A program made the translations under genes and the position numbers. This document shows positions 45,602-64,000 of a stretch of 64,000 nt of DNA, piece by piece. The stretch's first letter is position 1, and every line of letters starts with the position of its first letter. Location of the stretch: contig OZ253442.1 in assembly GCA_965261085.1 (NCBI GenBank), positions 3,200,001 through 3,264,000 of the forward strand, written 5' to 3'. This stretch comes from a bacterium. GTDB taxonomy: Bacteria; UBA8248. A model generated the notes under the pieces. The model saw nothing but the letters and a program-made list of their open reading frames with translations. It had not been told where the DNA came from and searched no databases.

Positions 45602-45974
45602 ACTTCGCGGAGAAAATGGAAGCAAGTCCTCAATCGGTAAAATCAACCTGCCTGTTGCGAACCGGACTTAGGAGGACGGTGCGACAGGGACACGTAGGTC
45701 TTTGCGGGCGTTTGAATTTCCTTGTTTCCATTTTGATTACAGACTGCGGAAGGCGGACTCCGAACGGGATTGAGGAGAGTGAATATTTCCCAATGACACC
45801 AATATGATAAATGGATCTCACGGCCGATAAAAACCCGCCTCCGTCTCTAAGCGGGCGAAAGGAGGTCTGGGCATTCTTGGGAAATAGATATCGATAGGAG
45901 CAAGTCATGCACTAATTGCTGTATACGTTGTCCTACTAGCGGGCTGGTTCATCGCCAAAATGTCCGATAAGAAT

Positions 45975-46172
45975 TTAGATACCATCAACCTCAGGCTCCA
46001 CCGGTGGTTCGTAAAACTGGAAATCCGTCGCATCGAGGTCATCCACATTGACATTTTCGAGTCGGATTGCGCCTCCGTCCTGATCGGTGAGGTTGATGAC
46101 GGCTGTGGTCCCATCTGCCGTGATCGTCAAATCCTCGAAGCTGGTGATGTTCGTGATCGCGGTGAGATCGAG
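45975..46172 (-). pseudogene. C-terminal remnant of an RTX/Ca-binding secreted protein
   Basis: Not in the ORF track: LDLTAITNITSFEDLTITADGTTAVINLTDQDGGAIRLENVNVDDLDATDFQFYEPPVEPEVDGI-stop. Confidence 0.7.
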
Positions 46173-46230
46173 GCGGAAGCCCTCATCGATTCGGAACGGT
46201 TGCGGATTTCCCGAGAGCCGCCGGGAGCGC

Positions 46231-46623
46231 TCAGGCGGGCAGCGCGGCTATGCACTCGACCTCGGCGAGCCAGTCGGGGTCGATGAGGCGGGCCACCTGG
46301 ACATGGGAGTTGGCCGGGAGATGCTCCCCGAACATCTCCTGGCGGACTTCGTTCATCACCTTGCGATTGTCCAGATCCGCGCTGAAGACCGTGGTCTTGA
46401 CGACGTTTTCGAGCCCTGCGCCGGCTTCTTCGAGAATGGTCCGGATATTCGTGAGAATCTGGCGCATCTGCGCGGCCGGATCCCCTTTGCCCACCAGGTT
46501 TCCCTCGCCGTCCACGGAGACGCAGCCGCTCACGAAGACTAGTGAGCCGCCGGTCACCTGGATGGCCTGATTGTAGACGCCGAGATTCCTGATCTCGGGT
46601 GAATTGATGATCTTGACGGTCAT
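46231..46623 (-). CDS. RidA-family protein
   Basis: YNQAI, VFVSG, AGLENVVKTT, PANSHVQVARL, EVECIA. Confidence 0.9.
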   Translation of the reverse strand: MTVKIINSPEIRNLGVYNQAIQVTGGSLVFVSGCVSVDGEGNLVGKGDPAAQMRQILTNIRTILEEAGAGLENVVKTTVFSADLDNRKVMNEVRQEMFGEHLPANSHVQVARLIDPDWLAEVECIAALPA

Positions 46624-46833
46624 GTGCTTTTCCCTTTCCCAAATAAAGGAACGCGATTTTGTGAAGCAACCCGCCAATCGTTCCATGCGCCGCCGTCCAG
46701 TATTCGAAACAACAAGACTATAGAAGAAGCGTATCCTATGACGATAGCCACGAGCCAGGCGGTTACGTGCTCCTATGTTGTCGAGGGCCCGGACGTTCCG
46801 GCTCTCTTACCGCGCCGGAAAGTCCGGATGACG

Positions 46834-47598
46834 TTATATCATCGCCGCCCCACCGTTCACGTCGAGGGTGACGCCTGTGATGTAGCCGGCCTCCCGGCTG
46901 CACAGGAATATGACAGCCGCCGCGACCTCTTCGGGTTGGCACAAGCGGCCGATGGGCGTCACTTCTTCGATATGCCGAATGCGTTCGGGTTTGCGTATGG
47001 CCATGGTGCTCGGGGTGGCCACGTTGGCGGGCGCGATCGCGTTTACGGTGATGCCGTGGGGACCTAGTTCGCCCGCCACTTGACGCGCAAGGCCGAGAAC
47101 GCCGGCTTTCGCCGCGGTGTAGTGTGGCGGGTTCGGGTTGACCGCGCTGCGGGCGGCCAAGCTGGAAAAGCAGACGATGCGGCCGTAGCGCGCCTCGATC
47201 ATGTAAGGCGCGACCGCCTTCAGCAGAATGAACATCGATTTCAGGTTGCTCGCCACCATCGGATCCCACGTCTCCAGTGGACAGTCGAGAAGGCCGACGA
47301 ATTCCGGGAATCCGCCGGCCACGTGCGCGAGCACGTCGATACGCCCATGCCGGTTGTAGGCCGCCTCAACGGCGGAGCGGGTGGTATTCCAATCGGTGAG
47401 ATCCACCTGGAAAGCCTGCGCGTCTCCTCCTCCCTCTCGAATGTCGGCGGCGACGTTCTCCGCTCCCTCGCCGTTGATGTCGAGGATGGCGACGGAAGCG
47501 CCCCGCTCGGCGAATAAGCGCGCGCTCGCCTCCCCCATCCCTGTCGCTCCGCCGGTCACGATGACGTCCTGCCCTTCAAAGCTCAGGAATGAATCCAT
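46834..47598 (-). CDS. SDR-family oxidoreductase
   Basis: TGGATGMG, YTAAK, YITGVTLDVNGG. Confidence 0.92.
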   Translation of the reverse strand: MDSFLSFEGQDVIVTGGATGMGEASARLFAERGASVAILDINGEGAENVAADIREGGGDAQAFQVDLTDWNTTRSAVEAAYNRHGRIDVLAHVAGGFPEFVGLLDCPLETWDPMVASNLKSMFILLKAVAPYMIEARYGRIVCFSSLAARSAVNPNPPHYTAAKAGVLGLARQVAGELGPHGITVNAIAPANVATPSTMAIRKPERIRHIEEVTPIGRLCQPEEVAAAVIFLCSREAGYITGVTLDVNGGAAMI

Positions 47599-47929
47599 GC
47601 TATCCCCCCCTCGGTGAAACGCCTTCCTAAATGGAATCGAATGCCGTCGGGCCAAGCCTTCATTATTGCTCCGGCTCTCCGGCTGAAGAAAGGTTTACCC
47701 AGCGATGTATCGCACGCGCCGCCCGAGTGAAGCCGCAGACCGCAATTGCCTGAAAAACAAGGGTATCCCCATTCGCCCCGGAGCCGAGGCGGCACTGCTC
47801 CTCCCATTCTAGCGGATTTCTCCAATCGATGGATATGATATACTAGGGTCCACACGAAATTTATTATGCTCATCCGAATTGCTGAAGCCGTCTTATCACA
47901 CGGGGCGCGAAGCTTGAGGGGAGGAGAGC

Positions 47930-48685
47930 ATGCGGGGGAAACAATGGTCGGGGATGCTCTCCGCCTTGGGATTTTCGCTCTTCATCTGCGCCTGGTGGAT
48001 AGTGGCGGAGTTCTCCCATCCCCTCTTTGTTCCCTCACCCTGGCTCACCGTCATGACGGCCATCGAGCTGGCGCGCACGGGCTTTCTCCAAGAATCCATC
48101 CTGATGAGCCTGGGCCGGATCATGGGCGGCTGGCTTCTGGGGTGCGCGTTGGGAATTCCCTTGGGCCTGCTCATGGGCTGGCTGCCCGGCGTTCGCGCCT
48201 TCGCCACCCCCTACATCCAGGGATTGCGCTACATTCCGCCCATCTCGTTCGTGGGCATCTTCATCGTCTGGTTCGGGCTGGGTGAAGCCTCGAAAATCAT
48301 GCTCGTTTTCTACACCTCGTTTTTCGTGAGCGTGATCAACACCATGGCCGGAACTTTGAGCGCACCCCCGGGGGTCCTGCGCGCCGCCCGAAGCCTGGGA
48401 GCGACGGAAACCCAAGTCCTGCTCCAGGTGGTCGTGCCCGAAACGGCGCCCTACATCGTGACGGGCATGCGGATGGCCATGGGAAACGCGTTCATCGTAA
48501 TCGCGGCGGCGGAGATGCTTGCCGCTCGTTCCGGAATGGGATACCTTATTTGGTCTGCAAGAAATTTTATGCTGACCGATCAGGTTTTTGTCGGTTTCCT
48601 AGGTCTGGGCCTCTTGGGGCTGGCCATTGATCGGGTGTTCCGGTTCCTCGCCTACCGGTTCCTCTCCCACTATCGGGTGGTGTGA
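47930..48685 (+). CDS. sulfonate/nitrate-type ABC permease
   Basis: FVPSP, RYIPP, AARSLGA, AAAEM. Confidence 0.92.
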   Translation: MRGKQWSGMLSALGFSLFICAWWIVAEFSHPLFVPSPWLTVMTAIELARTGFLQESILMSLGRIMGGWLLGCALGIPLGLLMGWLPGVRAFATPYIQGLRYIPPISFVGIFIVWFGLGEASKIMLVFYTSFFVSVINTMAGTLSAPPGVLRAARSLGATETQVLLQVVVPETAPYIVTGMRMAMGNAFIVIAAAEMLAARSGMGYLIWSARNFMLTDQVFVGFLGLGLLGLAIDRVFRFLAYRFLSHYRVV

Positions 48686-48880
48686 ACCGTATCAGCGGCC
48701 GGTCTGGATGAAAGGGCTAAGAATGATTTCATTCCGAAACCCTTCCGCACTTCGCTCACAAGTTAGGTCCGGGTTTTCGATTCCGCTCATCTCCAGCACC
48801 GGCGCAAACGGATGCGCCGGATCTCAATTGCGATGCGTTGCCTCATGGAACTTCACCCTGTGAAAAGAGGAGGATGACCT

Positions 48881-49879
48881 ATGAAGCGTGAAAGAAACTG
48901 GATACGGGGAATTGTCGGAATTGCCGTGTTGGCGTTCTTCCTTGCGGTCGGTCTCGAGCCGGCGGGGGCGGCCGACGATGGGGTGGTTCGCTTTTCGAGC
49001 GAGCCCACTTCGTTGGGGATACCCTACTGGCTGGCCGAGGACAAGGGGATTTTCAAGAAGCACGGACTCAAGACCACCAACACCATGGGCCACACCGCTT
49101 TGGTGGGTCTGCGGGCCATCGGCAGCGGCCAATTAGACATCTCCTTTCAGAGCGATCCGCCCACTATCTCGAACATCGCCAAGGGGATCGACGCCATCAT
49201 CGTGGCCGCGACGGCGCAGGGCAACCAGAGCATGAAGCTGGTGGCCAAAAAGTCGATCAAGAGCCCCCGGGACCTCATCGGAAAGAAAGTGACCTGGATG
49301 GGCGGAACCGGCGGAGAGTTCGGGTTCATCAAGTTCCTCGCAAACAGGGGCATCGACTACAAGAAGCTGGATCACGTCAACCTCCCCCCGCCCGAAGCCG
49401 CCCCCACCCTGGTGAAGGGCGCCGTGGAGGCCATGTGGTTCTGGGAACCCTGGCCGCGCAAGGTGATGCAGTTGAAGGGGGATGCCCTCCATATCCTGGC
49501 GGCAAGCAAGGCCAGCGACTACGAGCCCAACTTCCACTTGACGGTCCGCCGAGGTTTCGCCAAGGAGAAACCCAAAACCCTGAAGCGCTTCCTGCGGGCT
49601 CTGATCGAGGCGACGGATATGGCCAACGCGGATCCCGGAGCGGCGGCGGCCGTGTTCCAGAAGGTCACCCGCTCCAGCGCGGCGGACGCCAAGGCGGCGC
49701 TGAACGACTACAAACTGAAAATCTGGCTCGACAAGAGTTACTTCGATACCCTTCAGGAGGTTTCCGCGTTCAAGAAGAAGCTGGGCCACATCAAGCAGAT
49801 TCCGAACTGGAAGAGCATCATCGATCCGAGCTTCCTCCGGGCGGTGGACGCCTCCAGGGTGACGGACTTCCCGTACTAG
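48881..49879 (+). CDS. sulfonate/nitrate-type ABC substrate-binding protein
   Basis: Signal peptide; KGIFKKHGL, DLIGKKV, WEPW. Confidence 0.9.
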   Translation: MKRERNWIRGIVGIAVLAFFLAVGLEPAGAADDGVVRFSSEPTSLGIPYWLAEDKGIFKKHGLKTTNTMGHTALVGLRAIGSGQLDISFQSDPPTISNIAKGIDAIIVAATAQGNQSMKLVAKKSIKSPRDLIGKKVTWMGGTGGEFGFIKFLANRGIDYKKLDHVNLPPPEAAPTLVKGAVEAMWFWEPWPRKVMQLKGDALHILAASKASDYEPNFHLTVRRGFAKEKPKTLKRFLRALIEATDMANADPGAAAAVFQKVTRSSAADAKAALNDYKLKIWLDKSYFDTLQEVSAFKKKLGHIKQIPNWKSIIDPSFLRAVDASRVTDFPY

Positions 49880-49889
49880 AACGAAGCGG

Positions 49890-50663
49890 GTGAAAGGGGG
49901 AAAGGGAAGTTTGAGGATCGAGGGAACCGTCGCGATTTACACCCTTTCTGTGGCCATTTTCCTGGTGGCCTGGTGGGGTTTTACCTTTGTGTATCCCCCG
50001 ATCTTCCTCCCTTCCCCCTTGGCCACCACGCTGAAAGCCATCGAAATCACGCGCACCGGCGAGTTGCCCTGGAATATCGTGATGAGCTTGTTCCGGGTTC
50101 TCTCGGGATGGGTGCTCGGGGGCGTCGTCGGTTCTTTTCTTGGCATCATCATGGGACGGCTCCCTTGGGTGCGGGCGCTCGTTCTTCCCGTTTTGGAATA
50201 CTTCCGCTTCGTCCCGCCCGTGACCCTGGTCACGTTGTTCATCATCTGGTTCGGCTTCGGAGAAGAATCGAAAATCGTCCTGATCTTCTACACGGTGGTT
50301 TTCATCGTGGTGGTGAACACTATGGCGGGGGCCGCCTCGGTGCGGGAGGGCGCCATCCGGGCCGCCCGAAGCCTCGGCGCCACCGGGACCCAAGTCCTTT
50401 TCCGGATCGTCGTCCCCGAGACGATTCCCTACATGGTCACCGGCTTGCAGTTGGCCCTCAGCAACGCCTTCATGACCATCGTGGCGGCGGAGATGCTTGC
50501 CGCGAAATCGGGGGTCGGCTTCATGATCTGGGACGCCCAGATCTATACCAAGACGGAGCGGATGTTCGTCGCCTTCGTCACACTCAGCTTGATGGGCTTC
50601 AGCTTGGATCGCTCCGTTCACGCCCTCTCCCGCCGCATGTTCGTCCACTACAGGGTGGTGTGA
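49890..50663 (+). CDS. sulfonate/nitrate-type ABC permease
   Basis: FLPSP, RFVPP, AARSLGA, VAAEM. Confidence 0.92.
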   Translation: MKGGKGSLRIEGTVAIYTLSVAIFLVAWWGFTFVYPPIFLPSPLATTLKAIEITRTGELPWNIVMSLFRVLSGWVLGGVVGSFLGIIMGRLPWVRALVLPVLEYFRFVPPVTLVTLFIIWFGFGEESKIVLIFYTVVFIVVVNTMAGAASVREGAIRAARSLGATGTQVLFRIVVPETIPYMVTGLQLALSNAFMTIVAAEMLAAKSGVGFMIWDAQIYTKTERMFVAFVTLSLMGFSLDRSVHALSRRMFVHYRVV

Positions 50664-50799
50664 TGCGGAAAGAGAAGAAGCGTTTCTTCGGAAAAGGCGG
50701 GGGAAGGAGGGTGGGGGCGTCGTATCCGAAATCCACATTGTCGCCGCTCGCAGCGCGTCGCGGGGCGCCTGAAGACGCTCGATTAGGAACCCTCCCCAA

Positions 50800-51603
50800 A
50801 TGACGGAAAAAGTTCGGCTCGAAAAAGTTACCAAAATCTTCGAAGACCCCAGAAAAGGACGGGAGACGGTGGCCCTGAAGGATGTCTCCTTCGGCATCGA
50901 AGACCGGGAGATCGTCGCCCTCCTGGGCCCGAGCGGGTGCGGCAAAACCACCATCTTGAACATCATCGCGGGGTTCATCCTGCCCTCCGAGGGGGAGGCG
51001 CTGCTCGAAGGGCGCCTCATCACAAAACCCGGCCCGGAGCGCGGCGTCGTTTTCCAGGAACACTTCCTGTTTCACTGGCTTACCGTGGAAGACAACATCG
51101 CCTTCGCGCTGAAGATCCGGGGAGTGCCCAGGAAGGAATTCCTGCCCCGCGCGCACGAATTCGTCAAGCTCGTGGGGCTCACGGGATTTGAGCGCCACCA
51201 CCCGGACGAGCTCTCGGGAGGGATGCGCCAGCGCGTCTCCATCGCCCGTGTTCTCATCAACAATCCAGAGATCCTCCTCATGGACGAGCCTTTCGCGGCT
51301 CTCGACGCCCAGACCCGTCTCCTCATGCAGGAGTGGTTGCTCAAGCTCTGGGAAGAGCACCAGATGAGCATGCTCTTCATCACCCACGATGTGGACGAAG
51401 CGATTTTGATGGCGGACCGAATCTTCGTGATGGGGGTGCAGCCGGGGAGAATCATCCAGGAGCTCAAAGTGCCTCTGCCGCGGCCGCGGGCGCGGACGAT
51501 GCTGACATCCCAGGCCTTCATGGAGACCAAGGCGGGGTGCCTGGACCTGATCGCAAAGGAGAGCATCAAGGTATTCGAGGGGGTATTCGAGTACGGGGGA
51601 TAG
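50800..51603 (+). CDS. sulfonate/nitrate-type ABC ATP-binding protein
   Basis: GPSGCGKTT, LSGGMRQR, MDEPFAALDAQTR. Confidence 0.94.
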   Translation: MTEKVRLEKVTKIFEDPRKGRETVALKDVSFGIEDREIVALLGPSGCGKTTILNIIAGFILPSEGEALLEGRLITKPGPERGVVFQEHFLFHWLTVEDNIAFALKIRGVPRKEFLPRAHEFVKLVGLTGFERHHPDELSGGMRQRVSIARVLINNPEILLMDEPFAALDAQTRLLMQEWLLKLWEEHQMSMLFITHDVDEAILMADRIFVMGVQPGRIIQELKVPLPRPRARTMLTSQAFMETKAGCLDLIAKESIKVFEGVFEYGG

Positions 51604-51855
51604 CCCGACTCTTCTGAATCCATACTCCCCCCGGAGACAGGGAGACGCCCGATTTTTCCGCCGATCTGGATAAGGGCGTCGACGGCATGCGCTTCATGAC
51701 CTGTTTCGACCTTTTCGACGTCGATATCGACAAGTCGCTCGCGTTATCTCGTTCTGTTTTTTCTTCGGCGCGAATGGCGTGTTTACCCGGCTTCGCGCGC
51801 GGGATTGCCCCGGCAAGCGGGCGCACCGCCACGAGACCCCTCTTACGGGTAAGGC

Positions 51856-54800
51856 TCACCAGCGCTTCGTGCCGCGCAGGGTGATTCCGCTTTCGGGTTC
51901 CCCGTCCCCGTCGGGTTCGGTGAGGCTCGCCTCGAGGCTTACTTCGAGCGAGGAGCCGAGCCTGAAGCGCGCGCCCGCGCGCCAGGTATCCCCGCCTTCT
52001 GAGAGCGCCACGCCCGTATAGGGCGTCAGCAGGCCGCGCATGGCGCCCAGCCCGTAGCCCACCTCGGCGTCCAACCGCGCGTCGGGGTCGAAGCTCCCCC
52101 CCGTGAGCGCGCGCTGCGACCAGAGGCGCTCCACCCCGCCCGAGGCCGCGCCCCAGGCGGAACCCACCCGCATCGTGAGTCCCCGGCCTCCTTCGCCGGG
52201 AGAGAGTACGAGCGAGGCGCTCACCCCCCATTCCTCATAATCGCGCTCCTCGTGGGCCAGGAGCCCCCGGGCGCGCACTTCCACCGCGAAGCCCTTCAAA
52301 CCCGCCCAGCGCAGGCCGCCCCCGAGTTCCACGCCGCTTCCCGTCTCCGCGTCGCCTCCGTCATGGCGAAGGCCCACCTCGAGGGAGGGTGTCAGCACGC
52401 CGCTTTCGAGCTTCACCTCGCGCGAGCCCTCAAGCGTCAGGCGCAGGCGCCTCGTGCGCGCATCCGCCGCGGCGAGTCCAGCCGCCGCTTCCGATTCGGT
52501 CCGCACGAAGAGGACGTCGGTCTTCACCGCGAGGTCGTAGCCCCCAACGGAGGCGAGCTTGCCCCGGGCCCCGAACGCCGACATCGCGAGCGAGACGTCC
52601 GTCTCGATACGCTCGTTCGCCTCGTCCGCTTCTCTCGCCGCTATATCGAGCGTCAACCCGCCCTCGCCCAGGCCCAGGACGCCCCAGACCGAGAGGCGCT
52701 CGCTCACCGTGTAGCGCAGGTAGGGGTAGGCGCTCGCGAGCGTCGATTCCACCTCGCCCCCCCGCGCGTCGGCGCCCGTGTAGGAACCCTCCCCGGTGCT
52801 GTAGGCGAGCGCCACGCCCGCGAGGACCCTGCCCCGCTCGTAATCAGCGCCCATCACGCCCGTCGATACGTCTCCTTTGAGCGTGAGCGCGTCCTCCCTG
52901 CCGCTGAAACTCGAGCGCGACCCCCGGGCCCACAGCGACCAGCGCCCATCCCCGCCGTCCGCGGAGGCCAGGTGGAGTGAACTCGCCATCAGCAGCCCGG
53001 CCGTCGATATCTCTTGCGCGGGCGATTCGTCCGCCTCCGCCCGGAGGATATACTTCCTCTCCCTCAAGTCCTGCCCGAGGACGCCGGCCTCCCCGAGCAA
53101 GGCGTCCTCCGCCCGGGGCCAGGAAGCGCCCAGGACCACCTGGTGGCCGCCGATCGTCAACTGCGCCGGACCCGGAGAACTCCCCTCGAAGCGCGCGCCC
53201 ACGGCATCGAGCACCTGTTCCGCGACCGTGCGCCCGAAGCGTGACAACCATGCCCGTTGCAACGGGTCGGAGTTCACGATGGTGCCGATGGCTTTCCTGT
53301 CAGTTATCCGCGCACCCGAGGCGTTGGTGAGCTTCAACTTCATCGTCTCGCTTCCCTCATCGTGCGCATCGTCCAGGACCGGGACCGCCACCGTCCTGGT
53401 GGTCTCCCCGGCGGCAAACGTCAACGTCCCGCTGGTGGCGGTATAGTCTTGCCCGGCAATCGCCGTCCCGTTCCGGGTGAAATAGTCCACCGTCACCGTA
53501 CTCGTCGCGGAGCGGCTCAAGCTCACCACAAAGTCCAGTTGCGCACCTGCGCCTTCCGTCACGGTGGCGTCGGCCACCGAGATCCCCACCGGACCGTGGA
53601 TCGTTGCCGCCAGGGCATTCGAGAGTGGTCGATCATCGTTGGTGCAGATCGCCCCGGAGGCGGTGCAGTTCTTCGTGGCGGGCAATATCACCGTCACCGC
53701 ACCGTTCCCCGAGGGCTGCACCGTCATCGCCCACGTCTGATTACCGCCTTTGGTGGCCCGCTTCGCTTTCGTCACGCCGCCCCCCGTCACGTCGAAGGCG
53801 TCGTCACGGAGCGTCCGATAACTCAAGCCCCTCACGTCTTCACTAAACGTGAGCGTGAACGTAAATGGATGGGAGCCGTCATGCTCAGCCGGCAAATTCG
53901 ACAATGCCGCCGTGAGCGGCGTCGCCGCATGCCGGCTCTGCGCCACCGGACCCGGCACGCTGCGGGCCAGCCCCGTCGACAGCGCCCGCCCGTCCGCCGT
54001 ACAGAGCGCGCCCGCCTCCGTGCAGGCGCGGCCCAGCGGCGTGAGTATCGACACCGGACCGCTCCCGGCCGGCTCCACCGTCAGTTCCCACAGGTCCTTG
54101 CGGCCGTCCACCCGCGCGGCGGCCGTCACCGTCCCGCCGCTCACCGTCAGCGCGTGGTCGCGCATGTCCTGCGGCGTTATCTCCACCTCCGCGCTGAACG
54201 CGATACGGAAGGTGAACGCGCTCGACCCGTCGTGGTTCGACGGCACGTCCTCGAACGCCGCCGTCAGCGGGGTCTTTTCTGTCTCCTGCGCGCCCGTGTT
54301 GGAACAGCTCAAATGCACGTCCTCATCGTGGGTGCAGTTGTTGAGCCCCCAGCCCGCGTGGTAGCAGTGGTGCAGCTTGGTCGCGGGCTTCCCGGTCCAG
54401 TGGTTGGACCCGTCGGCGCACCGCACGTCGTCGAGCCAGATCTTCTGCGACGACGGCGCCACGGGTATGCTTGCTATTCTTGAGTCGCCTCGCTTCACCC
54501 ACTCGCCGGTCGCGTAGCCCATGAACTGGCAGGCTTTCTCCGGCGCGATGTTGCCCGGGTTGTCCAGGCGGTCGTCGCACACCGTGCCCCACTGCCCCTT
54601 GTGGAACACCTCCAGGCGGCCCACGTCCTCGGTGGGGCCGTCAGTCAGGCGCAACTCGCCGTTCACCCCGCTCGCCGGATACTCGTTGCTCGTCAGCGGT
54701 CCCTCCCTGAAGCCCGCGTCATCGGTGAAGCTCACCTTCACCTTGAACGTCTTGCCCGCGTCCGCCTGGACCAGCGTGTAGGTCTTCGACATCGCGCCCG

Positions 54801-56928
54801 CGATGTTCGTCTCGTTCGACCCGTCCACGCGGACCCACTGGTAGGTGAAGCTGGACGGCAACCCGTCAGCGTCCATGATGCCCGAGGTGCCGGCCCTCAG
54901 GGTCTGGCCCACCTGCGCCGCGCCGGAAATCTTCGGCTTGCCCGTCGCCGGGGTGTTGGTGGTGGTGGTGGTGGATTCTGTCAGCTTCAGTTCGACCTCG
55001 TCGCCGCTCGACCAGCTCAGGCCGGAGTTGTTCCAGTACCGGGCCAGCGTGAGCTTCTGATCCGCCTCCTCGAAGGCGAAGGTGTCGGAACCGACGTGAA
55101 GCACCAGGGACCGGCTGCCGGTGGCGATGTTGGGCAAAACCCACAGCTGGAGCTCGCCGCCGGAGCGCACCTGCACCGACGTCACGGCGTAGTCGGTCAT
55201 GGCGTGGGTGAACTCGTCCTCCGTGAGGTGGGCGGCATTCGAGCAATGATTGCCCGTGGAACCGTTCGCGCAGCCACGGTGCCCGTCGTCGAGGTCTTGC
55301 ACCGTCAGGGTCGCGCACCAGACGGCGTCGGCGGGGCACGACGTCTGCGCTCCCGTCGATCCGGTTCCGCTCGGCGACCACGCGCCGTCACCCTCGGGGT
55401 TTCTCGCGAGCACCTGCACCCGGTATTCCGTGCCCGCATCCAGGCTCCCGATGCTCGCGGTCGCCCCGGTCTGGTTCCGGGGACCGTTGGTCCAGCCCGA
55501 CTCCGTGGTCTTCTGGTAGCGCAGGTCGTAGTTCGTTATCCCCGGGCGGCCCGTGTTCGACGGCAGCGTCCAAGTCACATCCAGGCTGGTGGTCGATCCC
55601 GCGGTCGCCGACACCGAGGGCCTGTTCGGCGCCAGCGGCGCCTCGTCCTGGTCCGTGACGTTCAGCGTCACGGTGATCGTGTCGGAACCGCCGTTGCCGT
55701 CCTCGACCTTGACCATCACCAAGTAGCTCGTATTCGCCTCGTAAGAGTATTTTTCCCCGGCCTTGGTCTGAATCTGGCCGTTCGTCCCAATGATCCCGAA
55801 TCTGGCCGCGTCCGTGCCTTCCAGGCTGTAGAGCAGCGTGTCGCCGACATCCGTGTCCGTCGCGGCGATCCGCGCACCGATATTCGCCGCCGTCGAGACC
55901 GCCTCGTCGCCTATCGTCTCGTTGAAGGCCCGCGTCGCGTCGGCGCCCTCCGTGAAGGTCGGATTGGCGTTGGTGGTGGTGGTGGCCGTGCGCGTCACCA
56001 CGACCGTGTAGGTCTTCGTGGTGGTCGTGTCCTCGGCGGTTACCGTCACCGTGATCGTGTTGTCGCCCTCCGAGAGGTTCACCGTGGCCGTGTTCGGCGT
56101 GCTCGTGTCCGTGTCGCCCGTGATCTCCACCGTCGCATTGCTGTCGTTCTTCGTCGCCGTCACCGTGGTCTGCGTGACGGAGTTCGCCACCGTTGCGTTG
56201 TAACCCTCCGTGGCCGGCGCGAATACCGGGCTGAGCGTGACGCCGCTCAGCGCCAGCGCGTTCAGCGTCGCGTCGGTGGAGGTGGTGGTGGTGCCGTCGC
56301 CTACGGTGATGATCATGCCGTCTTCTCTCGGCATGCCGTCGCTTTTTATGGCGCCGAACTCAATGGTACTGCCAAGGGGCGCATCGGCGCCCACGTTGAA
56401 CGTGGCGGTAAGCGTGTGCGGCGACGTGCCGGAGAGAACTTCATAGCGGGTGTCGTGTCCCTTCACGTTGTCCCAGATACCGTCTGGCGGAGGCCCTCCT
56501 CCGCTGAAGGAGATGCAGAATTGTTTCGGCGAGGTGCAATCGTTCGGATCGGTTCCCAGCTTGTCCTGATTGTCCGAGGTGTCGGGCAGGTGGAATCCAG
56601 CGTATTCGTTTTGTGGTTTGGTCCCCGACGCCAGCGTGATCGTGAAGGTATATGTGCTCCCTGCTTCCACTGACGGGTATCCTGTCAGCGTCCAGGTCGC
56701 GCCCGCCGCTGTTTGCGTGATCGACGTCTGCGCCTGGGCCTGAAGGGGCAGGGCCAGGAGCGCGGCGAAGGCCACGAGAAGCACTACCGCAAGGCAGCGC
56801 GCCGCGAGTAAGCGCACGCGCAAACGTCCAGGCCGACCCGGTTCGGCTATCATCAGAGCGTCATCGTTTAGAGCGGCATCGTTTCTTCCGGCTTCAACAC
56901 CCGTATCGAATTTTCCGCGTTTTTGCAT
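51856..56928 (-). CDS. giant modular autotransporter-like adhesin (cadherin-like sandwich, cadherin, FN3, SRCR, Calx-beta, C-terminal beta-barrel)
   Basis: Probable ATG at 56928 after GGAGG; signal ...LLALPLQAQA. STDATLNAL...TKTYTVVVTR (cadherin-like), TDTDVGDTL.YSL (cadherin), LDVTW...EYRVQV.A.N..G..WS (FN3), LRL..G..GRLEV..WGTVCDD..IWLDDVRC..C.H.EDV.LSC (SRCR), GTAIAGQDY..GTLTFAAGET (Calx-beta). Barrel-like C-terminus ends in W. Confidence 0.9.
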   Translation of the reverse strand: MQKRGKFDTGVEAGRNDAALNDDALMIAEPGRPGRLRVRLLAARCLAVVLLVAFAALLALPLQAQAQTSITQTAAGATWTLTGYPSVEAGSTYTFTITLASGTKPQNEYAGFHLPDTSDNQDKLGTDPNDCTSPKQFCISFSGGGPPPDGIWDNVKGHDTRYEVLSGTSPHTLTATFNVGADAPLGSTIEFGAIKSDGMPREDGMIITVGDGTTTTSTDATLNALALSGVTLSPVFAPATEGYNATVANSVTQTTVTATKNDSNATVEITGDTDTSTPNTATVNLSEGDNTITVTVTAEDTTTTKTYTVVVTRTATTTTNANPTFTEGADATRAFNETIGDEAVSTAANIGARIAATDTDVGDTLLYSLEGTDAARFGIIGTNGQIQTKAGEKYSYEANTSYLVMVKVEDGNGGSDTITVTLNVTDQDEAPLAPNRPSVSATAGSTTSLDVTWTLPSNTGRPGITNYDLRYQKTTESGWTNGPRNQTGATASIGSLDAGTEYRVQVLARNPEGDGAWSPSGTGSTGAQTSCPADAVWCATLTVQDLDDGHRGCANGSTGNHCSNAAHLTEDEFTHAMTDYAVTSVQVRSGGELQLWVLPNIATGSRSLVLHVGSDTFAFEEADQKLTLARYWNNSGLSWSSGDEVELKLTESTTTTTNTPATGKPKISGAAQVGQTLRAGTSGIMDADGLPSSFTYQWVRVDGSNETNIAGAMSKTYTLVQADAGKTFKVKVSFTDDAGFREGPLTSNEYPASGVNGELRLTDGPTEDVGRLEVFHKGQWGTVCDDRLDNPGNIAPEKACQFMGYATGEWVKRGDSRIASIPVAPSSQKIWLDDVRCADGSNHWTGKPATKLHHCYHAGWGLNNCTHDEDVHLSCSNTGAQETEKTPLTAAFEDVPSNHDGSSAFTFRIAFSAEVEITPQDMRDHALTVSGGTVTAAARVDGRKDLWELTVEPAGSGPVSILTPLGRACTEAGALCTADGRALSTGLARSVPGPVAQSRHAATPLTAALSNLPAEHDGSHPFTFTLTFSEDVRGLSYRTLRDDAFDVTGGGVTKAKRATKGGNQTWAMTVQPSGNGAVTVILPATKNCTASGAICTNDDRPLSNALAATIHGPVGISVADATVTEGAGAQLDFVVSLSRSATSTVTVDYFTRNGTAIAGQDYTATSGTLTFAAGETTRTVAVPVLDDAHDEGSETMKLKLTNASGARITDRKAIGTIVNSDPLQRAWLSRFGRTVAEQVLDAVGARFEGSSPGPAQLTIGGHQVVLGASWPRAEDALLGEAGVLGQDLRERKYILRAEADESPAQEISTAGLLMASSLHLASADGGDGRWSLWARGSRSSFSGREDALTLKGDVSTGVMGADYERGRVLAGVALAYSTGEGSYTGADARGGEVESTLASAYPYLRYTVSERLSVWGVLGLGEGGLTLDIAAREADEANERIETDVSLAMSAFGARGKLASVGGYDLAVKTDVLFVRTESEAAAGLAAADARTRRLRLTLEGSREVKLESGVLTPSLEVGLRHDGGDAETGSGVELGGGLRWAGLKGFAVEVRARGLLAHEERDYEEWGVSASLVLSPGEGGRGLTMRVGSAWGAASGGVERLWSQRALTGGSFDPDARLDAEVGYGLGAMRGLLTPYTGVALSEGGDTWRAGARFRLGSSLEVSLEASLTEPDGDGEPESGITLRGTKRW
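54863..54966. repeat. 104-bp module shared with 57502-57605
   Basis: Ungapped hand alignment gives 92/104 identities; encodes TTTNT.A.GKP.ISGAAQVG.TL.A.T.GI.DADG. Confidence 0.9.
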
Positions 56929-57410
56929 TCTGAACGACCCTCCGTGCCTGTAAAAAAGAACCTGCCTTTTCCGGTGAACGTATTTGCGCACCCGGCGGCG
57001 GGGCGCCGGGTCGCCGTCTGTCCGTTTCCCTGGGCCGTGGCCTCCTGCGGCCGCCTCGAACCACGCGCGCCGCCGATAGTTGCGATTTAGTAACTGATAA
57101 TTGTTCCAACCGGGGCAATGGGCGCCCCGGCTCAACTCGTTTCTCCTCGCCGGGGGATCCGGAAAATCCCCCAAACACTCACACTCACCGAAAACTCCCC
57201 GTGAACCGCCCAAGGGTTGCTCTACGGAGCGCTGTAAATTATAAGACCCATTTATAGCATAAATTGTGTGAACTTATAGTGAGCATTTGCGCCATTTTAG
57301 TGTTTTTATCGTGTTATTTTGGATAAATTCCGCTGTGGGGCGGCAACTGCGCCGTGTACAAGGGGTTCCAAAACGGTTCGCCGAGGGTGGGACGCAGGGA
57401 CGCCGTCCGC
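56725..57410. repeat. ~685-bp direct repeat copy 1 (promoter, long leader, signal peptide)
   Basis: Near-identical to 58175-58855; similarity ends right after the QAQAQT signal-peptide end. Confidence 0.95.
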
Positions 57411-57491
57411 CTCACTCTCCCGGAATATGACCGCGTCGGCGGCGAACAGGGCTACGCCGGAACCGGAAAGACCGCGATGCTGAACCGCGCC
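57387..57491 (+). pseudogene. TrwC/TraI-type conjugative relaxase-helicase remnant
   Basis: GRRDAVRLTL..YDRVGGEQGYAGTGKTAMLNRA, the Walker A region typical of MOBF relaxase-helicases. Confidence 0.65.
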
Positions 57492-58375
57492 CTTCGTCTT
57501 GCCGTCAGCGTCCGTGATGCCGGTGGTGGCCGCCGTCAGGGTCCGGCCCACCTGCGCCGCGCCGGAGATCGCCGGCTTGCCCGCCGCCTGGGTGTTGGTG
57601 GTGGTCCCGTCAGCAACAACCGTGAATATCCCGGACAAGCCGTAGTATGGCTTAAGATTACCTGAGGGGGCGCCGTTTTGACTGAGTTCAAAACCCGGGT
57701 TTGCTGGAAATCCCTGGTAGACCTGGCCCGTTGCGCCGAGATGAAAAATCCCGGAAATCTCCCCGCTTGGATTACAGCCTTGAAACGTCGAAACGTCCGG
57801 CTAGCATTACCAATGGGCGTGGTCCCGTCCGGGAATTTGGGCGCATTGGAATCCCAGCCCCCGTCGTACAGATCCGCATAGTTGGCCACCTTGTTCCCGT
57901 TGAGCCAGTAGATCGGGGCACTCGTGTCGCTGCCGGCCGTGCTGGTGTTCACGATGGCGCTGGTGCTCGTAGTACACCCGAGGACCTTGAAAATCGAGGA
58001 GTGGCTTTGAATGTCCGTATGGCCGTTGGCCGATACGTCGGTCTGGAGAAACGTGTTGTAGGTCGCGATGTCCGTGGCTGTTGCGTTCCTTGTTCCGGAC
58101 GTGACGACCAGCAGGCGAAACGAGTCACCTACCCCCAGGCCGCTTGGCACCAGGCTCCAGTTCGCCGTCACCGTCGTCTGCGCCTGGGCCTGAGGGGGCA
58201 GGGCCAGGAGCGCGGCGAAGGCCACGAGGAGCACGGCAGCGGCGCGCGCCGCGAGTAAGCGCACGCGCAAACGCCCCGGCCGACCCGGTTCGGCTATCAT
58301 CAGAGCGGCATCCTTTAGAGCGTCATCGTTTCTTCCGGCTTCAACACCCGTCTCGAATTTTCCGCGTTTTTGCAT
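57492..58375 (-). pseudogene. truncated, frameshifted paralog of the adhesin (alternative passenger, no barrel)
   Basis: Same leader and signal peptide, then a different domain (NWSLVPSGLGVGDSFRLLVVTS...IYWLNG.KVA..ADLYDG.W). Frameshift at 57782-57797, then YYGLSGIFTVV-DGTTTNTQAAGKPAISG; ends at the relaxase remnant. Confidence 0.85.
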
Positions 58376-58855
58376 TCTGAACGACCCTCCGCGCCTGTAA
58401 AAAAGAACCTGCCTTTTCCGGTAAACGTATTTGCGCACCCGGCGGTGGGTCGCCGGGTCGCCGTCTGTCCGTTTCCCTGGGCCGATGCCTCCTGCGGCCG
58501 CCTCGAACCACGCGCGCCGCCGATAATTGCGACTTAGCAACTGATAATTGTTCCAACCGGGGCAATGAGCGCCCCGGCTCAACTCGTTTCTCCTCGCCGG
58601 GGGATCCGGAAAATCCCCCAAACACTCACACTTACCGAAAACTCCCCGTGAACCGCCCCGTAGTTGCTCTACGGGCGCTGTAAATTATCAGACGCATTAA
58701 AGCATAAAATATGTGAACTTATCGTGAGTATTTCCGCTAATTGCGTGTTATTATCGTGTTATTTTGGACGAATTCCGCCGTGGGGCCGCAACTGCGCCGT
58801 GTACAAGGCGTTCCGAAACGATCCGACGACGGTGGGACGCAGGGACGCCGTCCGC
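58175..58855. repeat. ~680-bp direct repeat copy 2
   Basis: Direct repeat of 56725-57410. Confidence 0.95.
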
Positions 58856-58869
58856 AGCGGACGCCGCCC

Positions 58870-59132
58870 CGGTCGAGGAAGGCGACGTGTTGGTGGCGAT
58901 CGAGGCGATGAAGATGGAAACCGTGGTCCGCGCCGAGCGGAGCGGACGGCGACAAACCGGGGGATGAGGAATGCGCCTCGCGAGCTTAAGCCAAAGGGGT
59001 TCCGAACGCATCGGCGCCCGGCCTTCCTTGAATCTTCTCCAGAGTCATCCGAATCGACCCCCGGCCGGAGCGATTTTTTGAGACCACCCCTATCGAGGCG
59101 AAGGCGCATTTCCCCGCATTTGCGGTGACGGG
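58870..59132 (+). repeat. deleted second copy of the pyc 3' end and its downstream region
   Basis: 58870-58945 matches 19596-19671 (includes EAMKMET), 58946-59020 matches 19764-19838, 59092-59132 matches 19869-19909. Confidence 0.92.
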
Positions 59133-59297
59133 ACGCGGGAGAGCGCGTGTATGATGGCGAAGCGCATCGCCGCGTTCGAGAATAAGGAATTTCTGAAAAA
59201 TACGATAAATTCACGGGGTTTTTCGATAAAAAAATAAAGGTTTAACTTATTGATATATATTGAGTTAAGAGCGAAATCGCCTCAGATCGGGGCGGAA

Positions 59298-60173
59298 TCA
59301 GGCGTTGATGGAACTCAGCAGCGCATGCACCGCCGCGTTCAGGGGAGTGGGAATTCTGCGCCTGGCGCCGATTCGAACGACCGCCCCCGTCATGACGTCC
59401 GCCTCTATCCGGCGCCCGGCGCGCCTGTCGGCGAGCATGGAGGTGGTCGCCTCGGGGTCCGCATCCTTTAGGCGTTCGATGGATCGCTCGGCGACGTCAT
59501 CCGCCAGTTTCGCGCCCTCCGCCCTGCCCACTGCGGCGCATTCACGCACGAGCCCGCGGCAAAGCTCGGCGACATCGGGCTCGCGCAGCACGCCCCTGCC
59601 CTTATTCGTCAGCGCAGTTGCGGGGCCTGCGCCGATGTTGTTACACAATTTGGCCCAGGAGGCGGTCGTGAAATCGGAAGTCGGCTTCACCTGAATGTCC
59701 GTGCCCTCATACAGGGAAGCGAGGAGCCGCGCGCCCCGGCCCTCTTCGGGAACGAGCTGGGCGCCTCCCTGCTGCGCCACATGGCCGGGAGCCAGCCTGT
59801 CCGCCGGACAATTCACCACGACCGGAACGATTTCCGCCCCTTTGGCGTACGGCTCCACCCGCTGTTTGTGCTCCACGCCATTTTGCAAAACGGCGATGAT
59901 CGTACCCTCACCCACGAGAGCATCCAGCCAATGAGCGACATCTTGTATCTGGTGCCCCTTCACCGCCAGGAGAACGCAGTCGACGGGTCTTGCTTCGGAG
60001 GGAGCGGTAACGCATTTCACCTGTGATTCGATAACGGAATCGCGTGTTTCCACCACGAGTTTGTCGATGGGCTTTCGCACACACAGCGTAACATCGTGCC
60101 TGCTCGATCGACATAACCGAACCCCGAACACGCTTCCAATGGCCCCGACTCCCAACACGGCTACCTTGCTCAT
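59298..60173 (-). CDS. panE: 2-dehydropantoate 2-reductase
   Basis: GVGAIG, LAVK, LQNG, WAKL..N, TSMLAD, E...GAVV, PTPLN. Confidence 0.9.
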   Translation of the reverse strand: MSKVAVLGVGAIGSVFGVRLCRSSRHDVTLCVRKPIDKLVVETRDSVIESQVKCVTAPSEARPVDCVLLAVKGHQIQDVAHWLDALVGEGTIIAVLQNGVEHKQRVEPYAKGAEIVPVVVNCPADRLAPGHVAQQGGAQLVPEEGRGARLLASLYEGTDIQVKPTSDFTTASWAKLCNNIGAGPATALTNKGRGVLREPDVAELCRGLVRECAAVGRAEGAKLADDVAERSIERLKDADPEATTSMLADRRAGRRIEADVMTGAVVRIGARRRIPTPLNAAVHALLSSINA

Positions 60174-60192
60174 CTATCAAGCTCCAGAAAAT

Positions 60193-61119
60193 TCATACCA
60201 AACCCCGGTGGCCCTTCCATGACGCCACGGCCCCAAAAACGCATACAACACCGGCCAGAGAATCCCAGCCCGAGGTATGTCCTATCTTATCCAACGCGCG
60301 CAAAGCAGAACTCAAACGCGTCTCATCCGCCATCCCTATCGCCGAGATCGATTCATGCAATGCTTGCGCTCCTTGCCCTCTGGCTGCGCACTCTAAATGC
60401 GCGCAACTGATTTTATTCGTCCGATATTTGGCTTGTGTCAATATGGCGCCCGATATTCTTTCTGAAATTTCAAAATACCCCAGTACGCGCAACGCTATCA
60501 TCGCACCGCACCAAAAATCATCCCCGGATGGCGTGAGCCCCGGACCCAGGCCAACCAGTTGGTGAGCGATGGCAGAAAATTCCAGGTTTCCCCCTTTATT
60601 CAGAGAGTGCGACAACCAATTCCCGAAGTCCGAGACTCCCTGCCAGGAGACTGTTTGAAATGCACCCGCATTTGAGATTTCCTCGCCGCTCGCAATGTAC
60701 GAAATGAGTGGGGCAAAACCCTCACGAGGGCCAGTTTCGGCTATCCACTCAACAAGAAACGGGAGATTTTGCAGAAAAGACCCCAAATCCCAGCCAACCG
60801 GGAGTGGCTCCGGTTCCCATACTTTGGGAAGGGAAGTATCAATTTTCATGTTGGAACTTAGATGAATAGAACCATTTTGAATTCTGGCAGGACTTCCGGA
60901 GTCCACCATTTCTGTGAAATCCACATCGTTCGAGAATTTACAAAGCGCATTCAGGGGTCCTGGCCCAATGCCCCATTCCCCGATGCACGTGAGTTGCCCA
61001 GATGTATTTTCCACATAAAAACTTCTGTGAAACACACCGATGATTTTCGCTTCGCCCGGTGAGCCTAGAAATTCTTTAGCAAATTCACCTGCAAGAACCA
61101 CCCGGAATGTATTCGACAT
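60193..61119 (-). CDS. DUF2877-family protein
   Basis: GLGPGLTPSGDD and IGHTSGWD motifs. Confidence 0.8.
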   Translation of the reverse strand: MSNTFRVVLAGEFAKEFLGSPGEAKIIGVFHRSFYVENTSGQLTCIGEWGIGPGPLNALCKFSNDVDFTEMVDSGSPARIQNGSIHLSSNMKIDTSLPKVWEPEPLPVGWDLGSFLQNLPFLVEWIAETGPREGFAPLISYIASGEEISNAGAFQTVSWQGVSDFGNWLSHSLNKGGNLEFSAIAHQLVGLGPGLTPSGDDFWCGAMIALRVLGYFEISERISGAILTQAKYRTNKISCAHLECAARGQGAQALHESISAIGMADETRLSSALRALDKIGHTSGWDSLAGVVCVFGAVASWKGHRGLV

Positions 61120-61159
61120 AAAACAGACCTGTATCATGAAACGATGGTTTCATCCAATA

Positions 61160-61200
61160 AAGAAAACCCCCCACCCACACAAGGGCGAGGGGATTCTCTT
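61160..61200 (-). terminator. probable intrinsic terminator
   Basis: Imperfect hairpin AGAATCCCC...GGGGTTTTCT followed by a T-rich run, just after the 61212 stop. Confidence 0.5.
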
Positions 61201-61211
61201 TTCAATAATGT

Positions 61212-61547
61212 CTATCCACAACCAGGTCCTCTAATCTCGCTCGCCGCAACACCAGATGGAACGAGTGTTTCGGCAAAATTCGGGTCCACCTGTTGTTTTT
61301 CGACCAATTCGGCAATCTGCGACAGCAACACCTCACGTTTCATCAACCCCAAACGATATATACCCATTGGGTTGATAAGTTTCATATAATAGTGGTTTCC
61401 AGCGTCATGCTCTGTAGAGCACGCAGAGGGTTTTTGGGCGATGGAGAGAGGGCCGCTAAAAACATCCGCAAATTGAGCCAGAACTTCCTCACCATGCAAA
61501 TCCGCAGGTATTTCGGGAAATCTGACTACGAGCTCTTGGATGGTCAT
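61212..61547 (-). CDS. hypothetical protein with C-terminal GPGCG
   Basis: 111-aa ORF with a strong AAGGAG RBS and a downstream terminator. Confidence 0.7.
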   Translation of the reverse strand: MTIQELVVRFPEIPADLHGEEVLAQFADVFSGPLSIAQKPSACSTEHDAGNHYYMKLINPMGIYRLGLMKREVLLSQIAELVEKQQVDPNFAETLVPSGVAASEIRGPGCG

Positions 61548-61682
61548 CGTTATAACTCCTTAGCGGGGTGGATCGTTTCGAACGGAACAACTCGCTGAGT
61601 TTAGCAGATGTTGAACCGCTTGGCTCCCCATTTCCTCTTCCTGCGACACTAAAACGAGCGAATCTCAAGAAAAGCGTAAGGA

Positions 61683-63656: not shown

Positions 63657-63659
63657 AAA

Positions 63660-64000
63660 TCAATCATCTCGCTCGGGGTGCAACGGACTATCTCCGCCAA
63701 AGAAAAGATCGCCAAAATCAAGCGGTGGAGGCTCATCGCCGAGGGCTTGCCGTCTTCTGCCCGCAAGACCTTCCAAGTCCAACGCATCATCTCCTAAAAC
63801 CTTGGAGAGCGCCTCTCTCCACGCATCGTCTTGAGAGAGTGGGTGCTCCGGGTTCTGCGCAAGACGTTTAAGGGCGAATTGAAGGATGTGGATACCATCC
63901 CGAGGGGAATATCCAAGGTCCAATTCATGGGCTTCCTGTAAGAACTCAACCGTCAAGGCCAACATCTCGTTGGGAGCAAACGGCAAGTGGTACTTGAGAA
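63660..64000 (-). CDS. C-terminal part of a probable MoxR-like AAA+ ATPase (runs off the window)
   Basis: Frame open from the edge: LKYHLPFAP...FLQEAH...YSPRDGIHI (lid-like S.R motif); only the tail is visible. Confidence 0.55.
   Translation of the reverse strand, partial: LKYHLPFAPNEMLALTVEFLQEAHELDLGYSPRDGIHILQFALKRLAQNPEHPLSQDDAWREALSKVLGDDALDLEGLAGRRRQALGDEPPPLDFGDLFFGGDSPLHPERDD

Follow-up and report, generated by a model that had tools for sequence, protein, structure and literature searches.

Among described surface proteins, those closest to the gene considered here are the type Va autotransporters, whose solved translocators are those of NalP (1uyn), BrkA (3qq2), Hbp (3aeh), EspP (2qom), AIDA-I (4mee), and EstA (3kvn). 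The gene lies on the - strand of a 64,000-nucleotide stretch of bacterial DNA (contig OZ253442.1 of assembly GCA_965261085.1, positions 3,200,001 to 3,264,000, lineage UBA8248; hereafter the window, to whose first letter all positions refer) and encodes a predicted adhesin of 1690 aa that carries a domain of the SRCR (scavenger receptor cysteine-rich) type. Like the type Va proteins, it is a single polypeptide with a putative extended N-terminal signal peptide and a predicted helix ahead of a modelled C-terminal barrel, and its genome encodes BamA. It departs from them in its passenger, made of cadherin-like, FN3, Ig-like, SRCR, and Calx-beta modules instead of a beta-helix, and in the roughly 75-residue linker that separates the conserved helix from the barrel. 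Two other groups of adhesins share features with it. The giant LapA/RTX-type and Bap-like adhesins, which leave the cell by type I secretion and are retained by a plug, have a comparable long Calx-beta/cadherin/Ig stalk with Ca2+-binding modules and a ligand-binding domain along it, whereas in the present protein the C-terminal barrel is itself the anchor. Inverse autotransporters (type Ve, intimin/invasin) also display Ig-like modules on a small outer-membrane barrel, but their barrel is N-terminal, while ours is C-terminal and finds its best fold matches among type Va proteins.

On the eukaryotic side, the animal group A SRCR domains (SCARA5, 7bzz/7c00; M2BP, 1by2; MARCO, 2oy3; SR-AI, 6j02) have the same fold, six cysteines without the C1-C4 pair, and the same acidic cation cluster. 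The bacterial domain differs from them by two short loop insertions and by its modest identity in fold alignments (28-32%), and it sits on a bacterial outer-membrane protein rather than on a collagenous trimer or a secreted glycoprotein. A last point of comparison is offered by the eukaryote-like proteins of sponge symbionts (ankyrin, LRR, TPR, WD40; cadherin, FN3) as presented in passages of PMC8163846: these too consist of animal-type domains with a patchy occurrence and lateral transfer among phyla, and cadherin and FN3 are reported there as enriched, with lateral gene transfer, among sponge metagenome-assembled genomes (MAGs). The same passages state that few lineages encode secretion systems for their eukaryote-like repeats; in contrast, type V export and anchoring are encoded here in the polypeptide itself.

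A full-text literature search found no description of an SRCR domain in a bacterial protein. Papers containing "PF00530" are, by title and abstract, on animals, except one on peptide-vocabulary analysis, and the combination of "scavenger receptor cysteine-rich" with "autotransporter" yielded only content that is unrelated by title and abstract. Where SRCR appears in the passages on sponge symbiosis in PMC4850255, it refers to the host; an invertebrate SRCR survey (PMC10855680) contains no occurrence of "prokaryot"; and the main text of PMC8163846 has none of SRCR, although its supplementary Pfam enrichment tables S2-S4 may list PF00530. Bacterial database proteins are already tagged PF00530 in precomputed annotations. 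Bacterial SRCR autotransporters can thus be seen in databases, while the literature searched does not report them.

The SRCR domain and the C-terminal translocator

An earlier note, made from the letters of the window, had described a gene at 51856..56928 as an autotransporter-like adhesin displaying an SRCR domain. Its span proved exact: a stop codon at 51856-51858 and an ATG at 56926-56928 on the - strand delimit one gene of 1690 aa. A longer open frame (51856-57213, 1785 codons) starts from a TTG, and residue numbers below follow that frame (P0001) unless otherwise stated. We take the ATG to be the real start: GGAGG stands about 10 nt upstream of it, and the same start, with a conserved "MQ..GK.D.GV.AGRN", is used in the gene calls of four homologs (P0122, P0128, P0132, and P0134).

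The SRCR domain, expected at about 54304-54654, was recovered by Pfam with an envelope at 54301-54642 (PF00530, residues 858-971, profile positions 2-100 of 100, E 8.6e-15) and 55.3 bits, far above the cut-off of 26.1; a genome-wide scan scored the same domain at 60.9 bits and found PF00530 in none of 14 well-known control genomes. An AlphaFold2 (AF2) model computed from an alignment of 133 bacterial SRCR domains reached a mean predicted local distance difference test (pLDDT) score of 94.7 and a predicted template modeling score of 0.89. Searched with Foldseek against the PDB, it gave 53 matches at E<=0.001, and all those among the matches listed (to rank 50) were SRCR domains, led by SCARA5, M2BP, MARCO, and SCARA1, with template modeling (TM) scores to the target of 0.76-0.86. 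All 22 distinct phmmer hits among PDB sequences were also SRCR proteins. Six cysteines occupy the invariant columns, and the C1 and C4 positions are not cysteine, which is the group A pattern; 114 of the 133 bacterial domains have six cysteines.

The residues that bind ligands in animals could be mapped as well. SRCR8 of SALSA has two surface cation sites, D1019/D1020/E1086 and D1020/D1058/D1059/N1081, and, in the passages of that study on mutants, hydroxyapatite, heparin, and a streptococcal protein are no longer bound once either D1019A or D1020A is introduced (Reichhardt et al., PMC7043408). By residue spacing relative to D1019, D1020, D1058, D1059, N1081, and E1086, all six positions are kept in the bacterial domain as D29, D30, D77, D78, N108, and E113 (P0001 residues 880, 881, 928, 929, 959, and 964). 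A strict form of this pattern occurs in 67 and a permissive form in 106 of the 133 bacterial domains, counts that are biased at positions 29-30, since both belonged to the search pattern by which the bacterial set was collected. In predicted fold, cysteines, and cation-site residues, the SRCR domain is genuine and intact.

The C-terminal part was harder to classify by profile. PF03797 was not reported in the Pfam scan of the whole protein at E<=0.1; with residues 1320-1785 alone it scored 38.8 bits (cut-off 26), over profile positions 2-92 of 255 only. The AF2 model of this part (16-row alignment, mean pLDDT 62.3) shows a helix, a disordered linker, and an all-beta region running to the last residue; the helix (residues 18-44 of the fragment) lies in a block with pLDDT 87-92, and a short helix (105-110) precedes the first strand. 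The first 15 PDB fold matches listed (ranks 1-16) are the type Va proteins NalP, BrkA, Hbp, EstA, EspP, AIDA-I, and AaaA, with E-values of 1e-9 to 1e-6 and TM scores to the target of 0.57-0.80 (0.30 against the full-length EstA and AaaA chains), and TonB receptors and porins rank after them with a much worse root-mean-square deviation. A phmmer search of the C-terminus against PDB sequences gave no hit at E<=10. The protein ends in a tryptophan (...RW). The same genome encodes an Omp85 protein (PF01103, 181.6 bits, 801-aa frame), taken to be BamA, and DsbA-family genes. The modelled C-terminus thus best matches a type Va autotransporter translocator, and the autotransporter-like adhesin of the earlier note is supported at both its ends of interest, the SRCR profile match and the predicted barrel. 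As side observations, a junction motif D.MP.AWLARFGRTVAE of the translocator subfamily is strongly conserved (alignment A3), and the Pfam Autotransporter model matches this subfamily only in part.

Between leader and translocator extend about 1250 aa of beta-sandwich modules, about nine including the SRCR domain. We are highly confident of this overall architecture, namely a leader, some nine beta-sandwich modules with a true SRCR domain among them, and a C-terminal barrel.

Distribution and exchange of the gene family

The genome's RpoB shares 95.9% identity with the RpoB of "MAG: Nitrospinota bacterium isolate RHO1_bin_79" and 95.2% with that of another MAG without phylum name; for the remaining labels compared (Binatia, Nitrospirales, Acidobacteriota, Alpha- and Gammaproteobacteria, Latescibacterota, and two Chloroflexota) identity is 51-59%. 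RHO1_bin_79 is entered as "sponge, Rhopaloeides odorabile, p__Nitrospinota;c__UBA8248" in the supplement of Robbins et al. (PMC8163846). By RpoB, the closest named relative of the organism is therefore a sponge MAG (UBA8248). Public runs that contain the gene bear coded labels and therefore add nothing on habitat, and the single "sponge metagenome" run, in which only 0.09 of the words were present, was not used as evidence of habitat.

The single-contig genome holds about eight full copies of the translocator, five 77-100% and three 48-65% identical, plus fragments; the SRCR domain occurs in four open reading frames (ORFs), and four of the eight or so barrels stand behind one. Two of these four paralogs look damaged (G000:C1:1164620-1167786, L003 and L109; G000:C1:1427574-1431524, L002 and L108): in one, a frame break inside the SRCR domain removes the last cysteine, and in the other the open frame begins inside a cadherin-like domain and lacks a leader. 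There are short remnants as well, such as the one at G000:C1:2487303-2487860, which has a leader fused directly to the last 110 or so residues of a barrel. Within the phylum, six genomes out of 51 carry SRCR, ours being one of them; they all belong to a single genus (6/23, or 5/22 without it), whose sister genera, with 28 genomes, have none.

A profile search with the translocator retrieved 11,396 representative clusters at E<=0.001 (50% identity), 6,205 of them at E<=1e-30. In the best 150, whose proteins are 589-3253 aa long, the translocator always lies at the C-terminal end or no farther than about 170 residues from it, and 14 contain SRCR; among the best 120 clusters at 90% identity, 23 do. 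In these 120, source names are available for three ("hypothetical protein" twice and "SwmB domain-containing protein" once), and precomputed annotations place PF03797 on only six members. Close homologs share the end of the protein and differ at its beginning: from mature residue 530 onward P0122 shares 86% identity with our protein, but its N-terminal domain is a different one, and P0128, P0129, and P0134 have only residues 661-1690 in common with our protein (72-74% identity). The most informative homolog (2067 aa, L015) is encoded by a complete Binatia-labelled chromosome. It is 73.6% identical over its last 1046 residues, with the SRCR domain 82% and the translocator 84% identical and a nearly identical leader, whereas the RpoBs of the two genomes are only 58% identical. 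Because the two proteins are so much closer than the RpoBs, these alignments point to a lateral transfer between the two lineages. Together, these comparisons show at the level of sequence that the gene belongs to a very large, modular, and laterally exchanged family.

A scan with a single SRCR pattern, using one genome per species (185,579 species), yielded 134 stretches, 126 of which were confirmed; the best 80 were taken further and correspond to 77 loci in 64 MAG isolates. Eight isolates have no phylum label, and the others span at least ten: Pseudomonadota, Myxococcota, Chloroflexota, Binatota, Acidobacteriota, Nitrospirota, Nitrospinota, Bdellovibrionota, Latescibacterota, and Planctomycetota. 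In all 22 ORFs scanned, PF00530 scored above its cut-off, and the surrounding protein is a giant mosaic built from FN3, cadherin, Calx-beta, LRR, and SWM repeats. In the flanking DNA examined, the same translocator follows the SRCR domain at 8 of the 77 loci, which carry Binatia, Alphaproteobacteria, Acidobacteriota, and Nitrospirales labels, plus one MAG of the same genus. Other groups show a patchy occurrence too: seed included, SRCR is present in 2 of 61 genomes of the family around an Azotimanducaceae MAG, and in the order to which a Binatia MAG belongs 5 of 61 genomes have it, four of them with a score above the cut-off. According to the supplement of PMC8163846, the HTCC2089 MAGs COS2_bin_11, IRC4_bin_23, and SB0662_bin_58 are sponge-derived.

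A Binatia-labelled MAG encodes a protein with seven tandem SRCR domains (L026:3835-7068) and a Bdellovibrionales-labelled MAG one with six SRCR domains and ten cadherin repeats (L047:1-6996), arrangements that resemble animal DMBT1 or protocadherin. Giant SRCR ORFs also occur in MAGs labelled Dehalococcoidia or Caldilineaceae (L044, L057, L061, L071, L074, L075, L084, L089, and L018), lineages usually taken to lack an outer membrane. The flanking DNA examined at these loci yielded no autotransporter barrel, and the anchoring must therefore differ. One member of the translocator family nevertheless bears the label "Chloroflexi bacterium", perhaps owing to a binning error.

Where the SRCR domain came from was addressed with a quick-search tree of 183 rows and 106 columns, in which 85 of the domains are bacterial and 98 animal. 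Our domain falls in a clade of seven bacterial rows (Shimodaira-Hasegawa-like approximate likelihood ratio test 98), together with two of its own paralogs and four domains from MAGs labelled Alphaproteobacteria, Azotimanducaceae, Acidobacteriota, and Latescibacterota (one from each), and this clade nests in a group in which 20 of 20 rows are bacterial (support 83). Of the inner branches of the tree, 121 of 180 are unresolved. The bacterial or animal label changes 19 times on the tree, against a mean of 61 after shuffling, and the starred branches force at least two changes. Identity to animal domains reaches about 40% at best. A homolog search with the SRCR region places mostly animal multi-SRCR proteins on top because the scores of their many domains are summed, which does not make them the nearest relatives. 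By its placement in the tree, the proximate source of the domain is bacterial, and any animal-bacterium crossing, with its donor and direction, cannot be told from these branches. The description of the domain as eukaryote-like calls for qualification, as the nearest sequence relatives are bacterial; and the phylogeny against animal domains proposed with it gives a well-supported bacterial clade, but neither a donor nor a direction.

Other modules and surroundings of the gene

The features of the gene are collected in table 1.

Table 1. Features of the SRCR autotransporter gene (positions in the window; residues as in P0001)
Feature	Position	Strand	Remarks
Whole coding sequence	51856..56928	-	ATG to stop, 1690 aa; start conserved in homologs
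Leader, 66 aa	56731..56928	-	Charged N-extension MQKRGKFDTGVEAGRNDAAL..., hydrophobic core LLVAFAALLAL, AQA|Q
N-terminal passenger domain, family-less	56254..56730	-	Residues 162-320; no Pfam family; other modules in its place in close homologs
Cadherin-like (PF12733)	55990..56241	-	Residues 325-408; 67.8 bits, cut-off 24.2
Big_9 / cadherin-repeat-like Ig domain	55609..55980	-	Residues 412-535; Big_9 24.1 bits, cut-off 23.6
Fibronectin type III (fn3)	55369..55617	-	Residues 533-615; 42.3 bits, cut-off 25
Cys/Trp domain, family-less	54949..55356	-	Residues 620-755; C..W C...GC.....C; ...SW..G..V.L.L.E
Ig-like "ISG..VG.TL.A......DG....YQW" module	54658..54948	-	Residues 756-852; Ig/PKD-type Pfam hits below threshold
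SRCR	54292..54660	-	Pfam envelope 54301-54642; six Cys; D880, D881, D928, D929, N959, E964
"HDGS..FTF" repeat 1, Ig-like	53941..54273	-	Short C.....C loop near end; 44% identical to repeat 2
"HDGS..FTF" repeat 2	53596..53928	-	Identity to repeat 1
Calx-beta	53317..53592	-	Residues 1208-1299; 64.2 bits, cut-off 27
Junction	52948..53265	-	Helix PLQRAWLSRFGRTVAEQVLDAVGARFE (53185-53265), strongly conserved across family, then low-confidence linker
Outer-membrane beta-barrel translocator	51859..52947	-	Ends ...RGTKRW; PF03797, fold model

The 66-aa leader is read as a putative extended signal peptide; its basic stretch, hydrophobic core, and AQA|Q end were judged by eye, and it is nearly identical in L015, P0122, P0128, P0132, and P0134. 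In the Pfam scan of the whole protein, four families exceeded their cut-offs (Cadherin-like, fn3, SRCR, and Calx-beta), in line with the cadherin, FN3, and Calx-beta modules named in advance, and an NCBIfam scan reported nothing above its cut-offs. Cadherin PF00028 reached 18.2 bits on the Big_9 segment, under its cut-off. The two tandem HDGS..FTF repeats, likewise predicted, align with 48 of 108 positions identical (E 6e-32); Big_12 on this region scored 26.2 bits, just under its cut-off of 27, and Big_12 clusters at 0.92 were the sole lead in an Atlas search. Residues 620-755 gave no Pfam hit and no usable Atlas hit, and we regard this Cys/Trp domain as an undescribed passenger module. Domains of the same kind, about 130 aa long, recur in L013, in one of the genome's own paralogs (L005/L006), and in the Binatia homolog L015, where the domain is N-terminal (43% identity). 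The Ig-like module that follows it recurs in L013, L014, and L015.

The gene has a GC content of 0.673 against 0.587 for the genome, an excess that stems from amino-acid make-up, since its GC content at third codon positions (GC3, 0.855) equals that of its neighbours (0.82-0.89). A recent transfer as read from base composition was rejected on the same grounds, no codon-usage anomaly being seen. Neighbouring genes have ordinary functions (ABC-transporter, dehydrogenase, PanE). No tRNA was found in 45000-64000 and no mobile-element marker next to the gene, and a scan for promoters and terminators gave nothing credible for it. In contigs from four sequencing runs, the flanks are covered almost identically but the gene itself is broken up, and the many contig joints inside it probably stem from paralogous modules.

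Some 2 kb upstream of the gene (57214-59297) hold only family-less ORFs, whose coding status may be doubtful; those at 57536-58621 (-) and 58664-59128 (+) match no Pfam or NCBIfam family. Farther on, at 60001-64000 of the window, GC content drops to about 0.50 against about 0.60 elsewhere, and two ORFs, an AllH-like one at 60193-61137 and one of 657 aa at 61683-63656 that matches no Pfam or NCBIfam family, have a GC3 of 0.49-0.50, compared with 0.73-0.89 in six neighbouring genes that have a Pfam family. This low-GC part may be foreign DNA.

Proposed function and alternatives

We somewhat favor the view that the protein is a type Va autotransporter adhesin of a diderm UBA8248 ("Nitrospinota"-labelled) lineage, which presents a polyanion-binding SRCR domain on a Ca2+ stalk; that adhesion is Ca2+-dependent, a role proposed by analogy, we consider an even bet. 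In this scheme, Sec would export the precursor and the BAM complex would insert the barrel, through which the passenger would be threaded out C-terminus first. Once outside, it would fold into a stalk stiffened by Ca2+ (Calx-beta, cadherin-type, and Ig modules) that would keep the SRCR domain some 450 residues away from the barrel. With the Ca2+ of seawater, the acidic cluster of the domain would bind polyanionic ligands, as MARCO, SR-A, and DMBT1 do. The most likely ligands would be sulfated or acidic glycans of the host matrix and of the aggregation factor, which would anchor the cell in the mesohyl of the sponge. Specificity would be diversified as alleles and paralogs swap their N-terminal modules.

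Several points weigh against this scheme. Natural type Va passengers are usually beta-helical. The barrel model is of moderate quality, with residues 46-122 and 373-425 below a pLDDT of 50, and PF03797 covers only about one third of its profile. The two damaged paralogs indicate that selection on the module is not uniform, the conservation at positions 29-30 carries the search bias mentioned above, and no RNA-labelled run was among the listed public sequencing runs that contain the gene. Titles of other SRCR-bearing MAGs suggest groundwater, sludge, or lake, and so do not tie the domain to animal hosts alone. The most serious difficulty is mechanistic: disulfide-bonded passengers are poorly translocated by autotransporters, as stated in passages of a review (PMC1533851). 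While the other passenger cysteines form short-range pairs, the SRCR fold needs three long-range disulfides, and with DsbA-family genes in the genome its crossing of the outer membrane is unexplained. Either the domain becomes oxidized only once it is outside, or the translocators of this family are more tolerant than the model systems.

Of the alternatives to an adhesin that anchors the cell, host mimicry or immune evasion fares best, unlikely as we consider it: the sponge would read the SRCR domain as "self", or the domain would compete with host SRCR receptors, and the cell would escape phagocytosis. SRCR is a hallmark of sponge immune and aggregation repertoires in the passages concerned of PMC4850255 and PMC10855680, the closest named relative of the organism is a sponge MAG, the module recurs in sponge-derived MAGs of several phyla, and eukaryote-like proteins are enriched in sponge MAGs according to parts of PMC8163846. 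However, mimicry would be expected to involve a close copy of a host protein, whereas the nearest SRCR relatives are bacterial and identity to animal domains is about 40%; moreover, the domain is also found in MAGs that are not obviously host-associated.

The occurrence outside hosts fits better a host-independent role, in which the protein would bind other bacteria or particles, in co-aggregation, biofilm formation, or the capture of polyanionic matter, or conceivably act as a phage decoy. Animal SRCR domains typically bind bacterial surface polyanions such as lipopolysaccharide and lipoteichoic acid, and SRCR mosaics are present in MAGs labelled Myxococcota and Bdellovibrionales, lineages that are predatory or social. 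The cation site through which SALSA, MARCO, and SR-A bind microbial ligands, as described in sections of PMC7043408, is kept. Within the phylum, on the other hand, all SRCR domains are confined to the genus of the sponge-MAG relative (6/23 vs 0/28), and we judge this role quite improbable as the principal one.

It is also conceivable, though we give it little credence, that the SRCR domain is inert or decaying, either an interchangeable spacer of the stalk or a module that, owing to its disulfides, is not exported in functional form. The order and content of modules do vary freely among alleles and paralogs, two SRCR paralogs look broken, and the disulfide problem of autotransporters is known. 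Yet the frame is intact over 1690 aa with all six cysteines and six cation-site residues, the permissive site pattern is retained by 106 of the 133 bacterial domains, an argument for selection on binding, and an 82%-identical SRCR domain occurs in a different phylum. Finally, a mis-assembly of animal host DNA into a bacterial contig, which the mainly animal occurrence of SRCR and the best summed database scores of animal DMBT1-like proteins might suggest, can be set aside, given that the domain is in frame within a 1690-aa ORF with a bacterial leader and barrel, that its GC3 is like that of the neighbouring genes, that the single-contig genome has four SRCR copies, and that homologous genes occur in other complete MAG chromosomes and near-identical pieces in contigs of four runs.

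Returning to the adhesin, how sponges discriminate symbionts from food bacteria is an open question. The known eukaryote-like proteins of symbionts mostly contain ankyrin, LRR, TPR, cadherin, or FN3, while SRCR is a domain that sponges themselves expanded for immunity and cell aggregation; an intact SRCR domain with its ligand-binding residues kept, on self-exporting surface proteins, thus offers a concrete target. The result also draws attention to an autotransporter family that is very large, has no name, and carries modular beta-sandwich passengers; it poses a mechanistic puzzle in the form of a three-disulfide domain in a type Va passenger, and it cautions that bacterial genes may be among the SRCRs counted in data from sponge holobionts. 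Going further, we put forward only tentatively, as a rather doubtful extension, that SRCR surface proteins constitute a laterally circulating "symbiosis module" by which at least ten phyla plug into the SRCR-based self and aggregation recognition of sponges. If this were true, the SRCR fold would either not be a metazoan invention or have crossed the animal-bacterium boundary at least once, and a large type Va family would export cysteine-rich, disulfide-dependent domains, against the current rule. Symbionts would then carry a recognition domain that their host has massively expanded, and the specificity of the association would lie partly in SRCR-ligand pairs on both sides.

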